From a virus: a DNA stretch of 41,680 nucleotides. The stretch is taken from the IMG/VR virus record IMGVR_UViG_3300036905_000054; one strand, given 5' to 3'. Shown here piece after piece: positions 40,993-41,680 of the stretch. Within the stretch, counting starts at the first letter, position 1; the number at the start of each line of letters is the position of its first letter. Under the pieces are notes generated by a model. The model was not told the origin of the DNA, did no database searches, and was given only the letters and a program-made list of their open reading frames with translations. A program made the translations under genes and the position numbers.

Positions 40993-41499
40993 TTATATTT
41001 TTATATTTTCAAGGATTTTTCGCTCAGTTTTCAAGTCTCGATTCACTGCCCGATCTTCGGAGAATTTTTCCCCATATCGTGCTTTCAGTTTAGCAATATT
41101 GTTTTCCATGATGGTTGGAAAATCAATACCGATTTCATTGCTGAATATAGCCAAATACCACAGGCAGTCACCGACCTCTTCTGCAATATTTACTATGTCA
41201 AGGGGGGTGCCGTAAAATATATGCTTCTTTAAAGCGTCGGCTATTTCTCCACCTTCAGTTTGAATGCCTAAAGAACCGTGAAGAAGACGAATCGTTCTTT
41301 CATTAGAAAGACGCTTAGCTATGGTTGAAAAATCTGTACTTTCAGTGCGGGACGCTAATTGTTGGTATTGATGCTCCCAGAGTAAACTCTGGGGATTCCT
41401 GTCCGAGTTAGACATAAGCCAACTCCTCGTGGGCACATCCTGCCCCGGCGAATAGCGTGTTACGAGCCGCATTGACATCGCGGTCGTGCTCTGCTCCAC
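40993..41499 (-). CDS. mazG: MazG-like nucleotide pyrophosphohydrolase (start probably the internal Met at ~41415)
   Basis: [25 protein letters not shown]...[39 protein letters not shown]. Confidence 0.7.
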
Positions 41500-41680
41500 A
41501 AGCAGAACATCGCCATTGCCTTACCGACAAGCCTGCAAGCCCTGTGGGACCGGATAGGCTCCCACATTCGTTGCAAGTCTTGGTGGAATACTTGGAAGCA
41601 ACTTCGATAAACGTCCCACCGCTTTTGGGCATCTTGTAGGACAGCATCTGTCGAATTTGTGCGTGAGATGAACTGTTCAC
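41408..41680 (-). CDS. TnpB/OrfB-like protein, C-terminal Zn-ribbon part only (gene runs off the window end)
   Basis: ...[23 protein letters not shown]...[26 protein letters not shown], typical of the IS200/IS605 OrfB C-terminus. No start lies inside the window. Confidence 0.65.

Follow-up and report, generated by a model that had tools for sequence, protein, structure and literature searches.

A 41,680-nucleotide stretch of DNA (IMG/VR virus record IMGVR_UViG_3300036905_000054; "the window" denotes this stretch at its full length) ends within a tnpB gene that adjoins a gene for a MazG nucleoside-triphosphate pyrophosphohydrolase. With good confidence, we interpret the locus as a non-autonomous, tnpB-only IS200/IS605 element in a large phage-like genome, the right end of which supplies the start codon and the N-terminus of MazG. 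In TnpB systems, a transcript running through the 3′ end of tnpB and the right end of the element into the flanking DNA gives rise to the omega-RNA, with the flank serving as the guide. The element belongs to a well-known family and is ordinary in kind, though its junction is unusual; it does not overturn current understanding. Four details are uncommon: the right end donates the beginning of MazG, the left end is degenerate, the RuvC-II site is non-canonical and the alleles at one and the same site are mosaic.

An intact tnpB gene and the ends of its element

The open frame at 41408-41680 on the minus strand comprises 90 codons and a stop codon at 41408-41410. A first-pass annotation of the window, made from its letters, had read these last 273 nt as the Zn-ribbon C-terminus of a TnpB/OrfB-type protein, and this identification was confirmed: Pfam PF07282 (Cas12f1-like TNB / OrfB Zn-ribbon) matched the fragment with E=1.3e-22 (80 bits, cutoff 26), and the translation, which corresponds to residues 260-349 of the full TnpB, contains a CxxC...CxxC arrangement (41498-41575), HDRDVNAA and STKTCNECG and terminates in HEELAYV. 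The suggestion that the gene might be truncated did not survive comparison with sister contigs. Two of these (L170 and L174) are 99.8% identical to window positions 40001-41680 and three more (L167, L169 and L173) are 98.9-99.3% identical. On the four contigs that reach far enough upstream (L167, L169, L170 and L173), the gene encodes 349 aa, and the window fragment matches residues 260-349 of its product without a single difference.

The full-length protein was tested on contig L170 (99.8% identical; tnpB at 4959-6008), whose 349-aa TnpB stood in for that of the window. This protein scored 203.5 bits on the NCBIfam model guided_TnpB (cutoff 100), contained the Pfam domains OrfB_IS605 and TNB, and aligned over residues 7-334 with the ISDra2 TnpB structures (E=2e-19). 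For codons 1-250, the ratio of nonsynonymous to synonymous divergence (dN/dS) against the relatives in L102 and L088 was 0.05-0.06, indicating strong purifying selection; against the other three relatives compared, synonymous sites were saturated. Taken together, the complete reading frame and its selective constraint identify the window fragment as the 3′ end of an intact 349-aa tnpB.

These data bear directly on the alternative that tnpB is a decaying remnant, with the MazG frame merely extending out of a defunct transposon. Database searches with the fragment did return many short homologues (77-155 aa), true 5′-truncated copies exist in L001, L003, L005, L137 and L002, and the window-type copy has a degenerate left end. 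Against this stand the full 349-aa frame in the 99.8% identical sister contigs and the low dN/dS, and the short matches proved to be mostly fragments at contig ends, their excess reflecting a query taken from the C-terminus. We consider this alternative largely refuted and hardly credible. Two related ideas were rejected: that of a family of truncated TNB-only proteins, raised by a first search in which all homologues were short, since the short proteins are mostly contig-end fragments and full-length genes of 348-358 aa exist; and that of selective retention of omega-RNA-only remnants, since the apparent excess of 3′ fragments is an ascertainment bias.

Close relatives (55-88% amino acid identity, 348-358 aa) were found on at least 16 viral contigs of IMG/VR and in two Acidobacteriota metagenome-assembled genomes (MAGs), with a more distant match in one Proteobacteria MAG; at least 16 IMG/VR loci compare with 3 species-representative genomes. 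In L096 and L089 a gene for a Y1 HUH transposase, TnpA (Pfam Y1_Tnp, E=2e-45), lies directly 5′ of tnpB and overlaps it, and in L007, L008 and L092 conserved TnpA C-terminal coding sequence adjoins the 5′ side of tnpB. With this Y1 TnpA upstream in relatives, the clade is a genuine IS200/IS605 family of the IS605 group. No TnpA is encoded next to the window-type copy, and other tnpB-only copies exist too.

The right end was recognised from a terminal sequence, GGGAG(C/G)(A/T)TCAA, which is common to more than 12 independent contexts and directly beyond which the contexts are unrelated. Every element showed the same layout 3′ of the tnpB stop, in which (C)AGGAATCCC is followed by stem, loop and stem and then by the terminal sequence. 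In the window, this end with its subterminal hairpin (GGAATCCC, hairpin, terminal sequence) spans 41368-41399 and is the sole such motif. The right end of IS608 likewise terminates in TCAA. At the left end, nine independent elements carried TGAAC 6-10 nt before GAGCGCAATCCC, a hairpin and GGGT(T/A/C)AGCGA, with unrelated sequence further upstream. The left-end hairpin of these relatives has an AATCCC-stem-GGG design, as has hairpin Hf of the right end (Table 1). Its position before the left ends makes TGAAC the candidate insertion target and transposon-adjacent motif (TAM). Of the IS ends on which the first-pass annotation had staked its reading, the right one is present, and only the left one is degenerate in the window-type lineage.

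Table 1. Positions in the window of the tnpB element, its predicted RNA and the adjoining MazG gene
Feature	Position	Strand	Basis or remark
MazG nucleoside-triphosphate pyrophosphohydrolase gene	40993..41415	-	140 aa; codons 1-16 (41368-41415) are right-end sequence
Putative omega-RNA guide UACCAACAAUUAGCGUCCCG	41348..41367	-	equals MazG codons 17-23; placed according to the established TnpB mechanism
Right-end tail GGGAGCATCAA	41368..41378	-	last element base 41368
Putative omega-RNA scaffold	41368..41680	-	3′ boundary firm; 5′ boundary perhaps just past the window
Hairpin Hf, subterminal at the right end (CCCAGAG UUUA CUCUGGG)	41376..41393	-	covarying stem in every element examined
Hairpin He	41405..41425	-	spans tnpB stop and MazG ATG; 5′ arm overlaps the Shine-Dalgarno sequence
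tnpB, 3′ part	41408..41680	-	codons 260-349 and stop (41408-41410); gene runs past the window end
Shine-Dalgarno-like GAGGAG	41423..41428	-	inside tnpB, 7 nt 5′ of the MazG ATG; predicted function
Hairpin Hd (GGGCA GGAUG UGCCC)	41431..41445	-	covariation, arm-swap
Asp327 codon, RuvC-III catalytic aspartate (= ISDra2 D361)	41477..41479	-	alignment to ISDra2 chains 8bf8/8exa
Hairpin Hc	41486..41509	-	arms flank an invariant UGUGGA loop within the second CxxC
C4 zinc finger (CNEC ... CSAC)	41498..41575	-	translation; cysteines invariant in the homologue alignment
Glu285 codon, candidate alternative RuvC-II glutamate	41603..41605	-	conservation; putative catalytic residue

A transposon end provides the start of MazG

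The neighbouring gene belongs to the MazG family (Pfam PF03819, E=7e-8; 932 homologues), and the catalytic residues of its acidic motifs (ExxE ... EExxD; E54, E57, E79, E80 and D83) are intact and were invariant among 16 homologues. As the first-pass annotation had observed, its longest reading frame (40993-41499) nominally overlaps the tnpB frame at 41408-41499. The same annotation offered an internal methionine near 41415 as the possible start, and several lines of evidence agree on this codon. The exact 140-aa protein was called from ATG 41415 on eight sister contigs and occurs in 59 index blocks; a Shine-Dalgarno sequence precedes the ATG; and the homologues, which are 126-130 aa long, align from Tyr17 onward only and themselves begin some four residues ahead of it. 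Between 41415 and MazG residue ~88, the frame has no further ATG, GTG or TTG. The last base of the right end, 41368, is also the last base of MazG codon 16. Since the right end stops at this codon, codons 1-16 are transposon sequence that replaces the native start, and comparison with sister contigs and homologues shows that MazG has a chimeric N-terminus.

We suggest that the element inserted within the first few codons of MazG and that its right end now provides the Shine-Dalgarno sequence, the ATG at 41415 and the 16 replacement codons of the chimeric protein. This ATG lies 8 nt inside tnpB and overlaps the tnpB stop as ATGTCTAA. Because hairpin He holds the stop, the start and part of the Shine-Dalgarno sequence, translation of MazG is likely to be coupled to that of tnpB, with He sequestering the MazG start region. 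In L003 and L001, gene callers likewise start the downstream frame at an ATG near the tnpB stop, 8 nt 5′ of the stop, and L003 shares the window's ATGTCTAA at this position. A transposon end that hands its neighbour a start codon, a Shine-Dalgarno sequence and an N-terminus is an instance of gene rewiring.

MazG genes were also seen upstream of which there is no element. In L175 (20-125) and L178 (478-590), more distant, element-free MazG genes share a conserved non-coding upstream stretch (..CAGTAATAACTCCTAGCGG..GCAACCCC..GGATGCAATC..). This stretch could be regulatory or an RNA element; in the window lineage, tnpB lies 5′ of MazG instead.

A predicted structured RNA over the 3′ end of tnpB

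Four hairpins were followed through the clade (Table 1). In an arm-swap test, the 5′ arm of one element was joined to the 3′ arm of another and folded against the cognate combination (p-values are uncorrected for phylogeny). Hc was present in 14 of 17 clade sequences with differing arm sequences, and its minimum free energy was -7.0 kcal/mol for cognate arms compared with -4.0 kcal/mol for swapped ones (p=9e-5). For Hd, all five pairs had changes on both sides in the 17-sequence alignment (arm-swap p=2.7e-7), and pair counts agreed. He kept its position while differing in sequence in 17/17 sequences (p=4.5e-9), with compensatory pairs present, and the cognate arms of Hf were likewise favoured (p=1.5e-6). 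Column-wise covariation in the 17-sequence MAFFT alignment failed for Hc, He and Hf because the stems shift register between subgroups; per-sequence folding and subgroup pair counts were used instead. In a nine-sequence subgroup alignment, 96.2% of cells paired (86% when shuffled, at most 54% in slid controls), and seven compensatory pairs with changes on both sides were found where 2.5 were expected (0/500).

The coding sequence bears a matching constraint. Codon identity at positions with the same amino acid was ~0.38 up to codon ~250 and 0.5-0.76 over the remainder of the gene, and synonymous divergence (dS) was about threefold lower in the last 100 tnpB codons. Moreover, the 163 nt at 41368-41530 folded with -67.1 kcal/mol (z=-3.56). 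The covarying hairpins, synonymous constraint and fold z-score support a structured RNA that spans essentially the whole window fragment and has its terminus at the right end, a layout known from characterised TnpB systems.

The omega-RNA-like structure anticipated by the first-pass annotation was accordingly found. That annotation also noted that the guide-RNA region coincides with the 5′ end of MazG, which stands; the coordinates it proposed, 41250-41420, do not. The element ends at 41368, the scaffold extends from there to at least 41510 and probably to the window end, and the guide would occupy 41348-41367. The guide length is an assumed one; a 16-mer of the guide had no second match in the window at up to three mismatches.

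Alternatively, the hairpins could be DNA-level signals for TnpA, or transcription or translation signals, instead of an omega-RNA scaffold. That Hf shares the design of the left-end hairpin is what one expects of the subterminal hairpins bound by TnpA in IS200/IS605 elements, and He, which overlaps the stop, the start and the Shine-Dalgarno sequence, could be a translational-coupling element. However, Hc and Hd covary and are located 60-140 nt within the coding sequence, farther in than a TnpA end usually requires; the synonymous constraint extends over ~300 nt of the 3′ end of the gene and matches known omega-RNA layouts. For Hf, both roles are compatible, and this hairpin probably serves in TnpA recognition while also forming the final stem of the omega-RNA. 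We therefore regard an explanation by DNA or expression signals as improbable.

Predicted targeting, fate of the element and its relatives

By the established TnpB mechanism, a transcript through the 3′ end of tnpB and the right end into the flank would be processed to an omega-RNA with a guide of ~16-20 nt within 41348-41367. TnpB with this RNA should cut TGAAC followed by TACCAACAATTAGCGT, and so the allele of this site into which no element has inserted. Such cleavage would help the element to be retained or to be copied by recombination, for example between co-infecting genomes, in the manner of phage homing. This standard role is the most likely one. Homing between co-infecting phages, including its non-restorative form, has been discussed (PMC13565253).

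Several observations weigh against this interpretation. The canonical RuvC-II glutamate (E278 of ISDra2) is Ser245 in the window-type TnpB. The candidate TAM, TGAAC, is drawn from left-end flanks alone, and in the distant MazG genes of L175 and L178 AAAGAA or AAAGAT, not TGAAC, precedes the target-like sequence, so that the TAM cannot be cross-checked there. An exact search for the empty-site allele TGAACTACCAACAATTAGCG returned none in IMG/VR and one TARA contig, where the match lies on the opposite strand of an unrelated gene and about one is expected by chance. A search of 40500-41680 against Rfam gave chance-level snoRNA and miRNA matches only and no family. The part of tnpB 5′ of codon 260 is visible in sister contigs alone, outside the window, and so is the left end. 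L170 and L168, contigs of the window type, show homology to other left ends only from TAAGCGAATACC on, 35 nt before the ATG and abutting the stop of a 306-aa gene; the left-end hairpin and TGAAC are gone. With such a degenerate end, classical excision and restorative homing would be impossible for this copy. Finally, the window ends within a large phage-like genome whose viral nature rests on context, namely unidirectional genes and sister contigs of 150-178 kb; structural genes were not searched for.

The active site nevertheless follows a recognisable pattern. The first-pass annotation had looked to the sequence beyond 41680 for the RuvC-like domain. In the sister contigs, RuvC-I and RuvC-III are present, and RuvC-II is non-canonical with a conserved alternative glutamate. 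D173 (GIDPG) and D327 (HDRDVN) match ISDra2 D191 and D361 in the alignment, Asp327 being invariant in 148/148 relatives. At RuvC-II, Ser-x-Asp (Ser245, Asp247) occurs in 21/21 clade members, while the next relatives (~35% identity) have glycine there. Position 285 is glutamate in all 21 of these Ser-type members and in 74% of Gly-type relatives, and is unconserved in canonical Glu-type TnpBs. Because serine replaces the RuvC-II glutamate, nuclease activity is unproven; activity with Glu285 taking over its role is plausible from this conservation. In published RuvC-II-rearranged TnpBs, an alternative glutamate compensates for the canonical one, the proteins are predicted to be active and some branches are virus-enriched (PMC10691335), a model that the Glu285 pattern fits.

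Since the left-end hairpin and TGAAC are lost, the window-type copy is probably no longer excisable by TnpA, and is thus probably immobile and fixed in place; the sister genome L172 retains an intact left end (TGAAC and the GAGCGCAATCCC hairpin). This raises the question of whether such a copy is still a transposon in function or an immobilised, exapted TnpB, kept by the phage as an RNA-guided weapon against rivals with an intact MazG 5′ end or as a TldR-like regulator. For exaptation speaks that the open reading frame, omega-RNA and right end are intact in L170 and L168 despite the loss at the left, that the locus is fixed, with the same MazG fusion in many samples, that sister genomes differ in a mosaic fashion in the 5′ parts of tnpB but share its 3′ part and the junction, and that non-restorative homing into co-infecting phages has been discussed (PMC13565253). 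However, the clade occurs as complete two-ended tnpA-tnpB elements in many unrelated contexts, so nothing in it is specific to the window-type copy. Its guide is a mere insertion flank, as in any IS605 element, the left end may have decayed only recently, and the zinc finger and RuvC-III are kept, in contrast to TldRs. TldRs are C-terminally truncated and have lost RuvC-III. On this balance, exaptation as weapon or regulator appears unlikely to us, and a tnpB-only element whose right end starts MazG remains the preferred reading.

A bolder version deserves slightly more credit, though we hold it only tentatively and would not expect it to be right: an immobilised RNA-guided nuclease kept by the phage, its guide fixed on the intact MazG 5′ end of rivals, would act as a homing or exclusion drive between co-infecting phages, with MazG addicted to the element end. 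If so, the mosaic tnpB alleles (L168, L171 and L172) would be footprints of repeated conversion, and the phage would depend on the element for the ribosome-binding site, start codon and N-terminus of its MazG.

Comparison with characterised systems places the element, read as a tnpB-only IS200/IS605 member, close to familiar ones. It is homologous over nearly its full length to the ISDra2 TnpB/omega-RNA system of Deinococcus radiodurans (PDB 8EXA, 8BF8 and 8H1J), with which it shares the zinc finger, the RuvC-I aspartate, the RuvC-III DRDxN motif, the association with a Y1 TnpA and, as predicted here, a guide RNA made from the 3′ end of the gene and the right end with the right flank as guide. 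Unlike ISDra2, the protein has 349 instead of 408 aa and Ser245 at the E278 position with Glu285 conserved elsewhere, the candidate TAM is TGAAC rather than TTGAT, and just 40 nt separate the stop from the element end. RIIr-type RuvC-II-rearranged TnpBs (Altae-Tran et al. 2023, PMC10691335) likewise combine a replaced canonical glutamate with a conserved alternative one. The nearest relatives (~35% identity), which have glycine in the RuvC-II column, share Glu285; unlike this rearranged Gly-type, the window clade has Ser-x-Asp at the canonical position and is not assignable to a named branch. As in IS608 and other IS200/IS605 elements, the asymmetric ends each carry a subterminal hairpin, the element inserts 3′ of a short target motif, and both TnpA-plus-TnpB and TnpB-only forms occur; the target motif TGAAC and the missing left-end hairpin of the window-type copy set it apart.

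Like a TldR, the window-type TnpB adjoins a specific gene that its guide matches, in a copy that appears immobile. Unlike a TldR, it keeps RuvC-I, RuvC-III and the zinc finger, the RuvC-II serine is clade-wide and includes mobile tnpA-linked elements, and the guide matches a coding flank with no TAM on the resident allele rather than a promoter. Free-standing phage homing endonucleases such as T4 SegF (PMC13565253) offer another parallel, in that a nuclease gene sits between conserved phage genes, the predicted target is the allele lacking the gene, and the surrounding mosaic alleles resemble co-conversion tracts. The difference is that the element derives from a transposon and that its predicted targeting is RNA-guided; homing itself is a proposal.

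Looking forward, the locus offers a concrete place for asking whether phage TnpB elements act as RNA-guided homing endonucleases. Moreover, a very compact 349-aa TnpB with a non-canonical site (Ser245, Asp247 and Glu285), from a clade found mostly in viral contigs, may be of use for genome editing, for which the candidate parts are the protein, an omega-RNA of ~150-300 nt, the candidate TAM TGAAC and a defined scaffold-guide boundary.

The surroundings of the locus were also surveyed. INPHARED phages, searched in the "near" and "distant" modes, gave no match, and an exact 51-mer from the window end was not found in IMG/VR. For the majority of large window open reading frames tested, no PHROG function was assigned. 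An NAD-dependent DNA ligase is encoded at 24977-27073 on the minus strand (PHROG 3869, E=7e-139), and a Thg1-like tRNA-His guanylyltransferase (Pfam PF04446, E=2.8e-23) at 39135-39980 on the same strand, two genes from MazG. In sister contigs, the locus lies within a nucleotide-metabolism cluster (dCMP deaminase, a ThyX-like gene, NUDIX and a DNA methylase). A GC-rich inverted repeat at 40777-40839, CCCCCGCTCGG ... CCAGCGGGGG, with arms of ~11 nt placed ~40 nt apart, falls within a 69-aa open reading frame (40655-40864); it came up merely as a chance-level Rfam miRNA match.

Related copies showed several composite structures. Nested or tandem arrangements were seen in L168 (4797-6048), L171 and L005 (948-1413), compared with window 41368-41530. 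In the nested copy, tnpB is identical to the window type up to L170 position 5839 and then continues in a divergent 3′ module (~72% identity) with a TCAA right end of its own. To this first right end a second, partial copy is attached directly; it is identical to the window from 41530 on and leads into the right end and MazG. L005 has the same nested junction next to another right flank, which indicates that the composite moves. Beyond the first right end comes TTGTCGGTAAGGCAATGG, a near-invariant tnpB stretch with no TGAAC before it. Canonical TGAAC insertion did not account for the junctions in which the right end of one copy meets the interior of another tnpB. A further junction of this kind, different from the first, is found in L003 (2101-2200), where the tail of another element, with Hd-, He- and Hf-like hairpins and the end GGGAGGATCAA, abuts a 5′-truncated tnpB at codon ~238.

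Alleles at the window-type site itself are mosaic as well. The sister genomes L172 (204-1256) and L170 (4959-6008) are 96.6% identical downstream of the element, and the 5′ parts of their tnpB genes are only ~74% identical; the last ~270 nt of tnpB, the right end and the MazG junction are window-like. This mosaic points to allele replacement or recombination between elements at one locus. Lastly, L001, an unrelated 115-kb phage contig that carries a truncated copy of the element, encodes at 11083-12234 a large terminase with a weak LAGLIDADG match, which may be an intein or a homing endonuclease.

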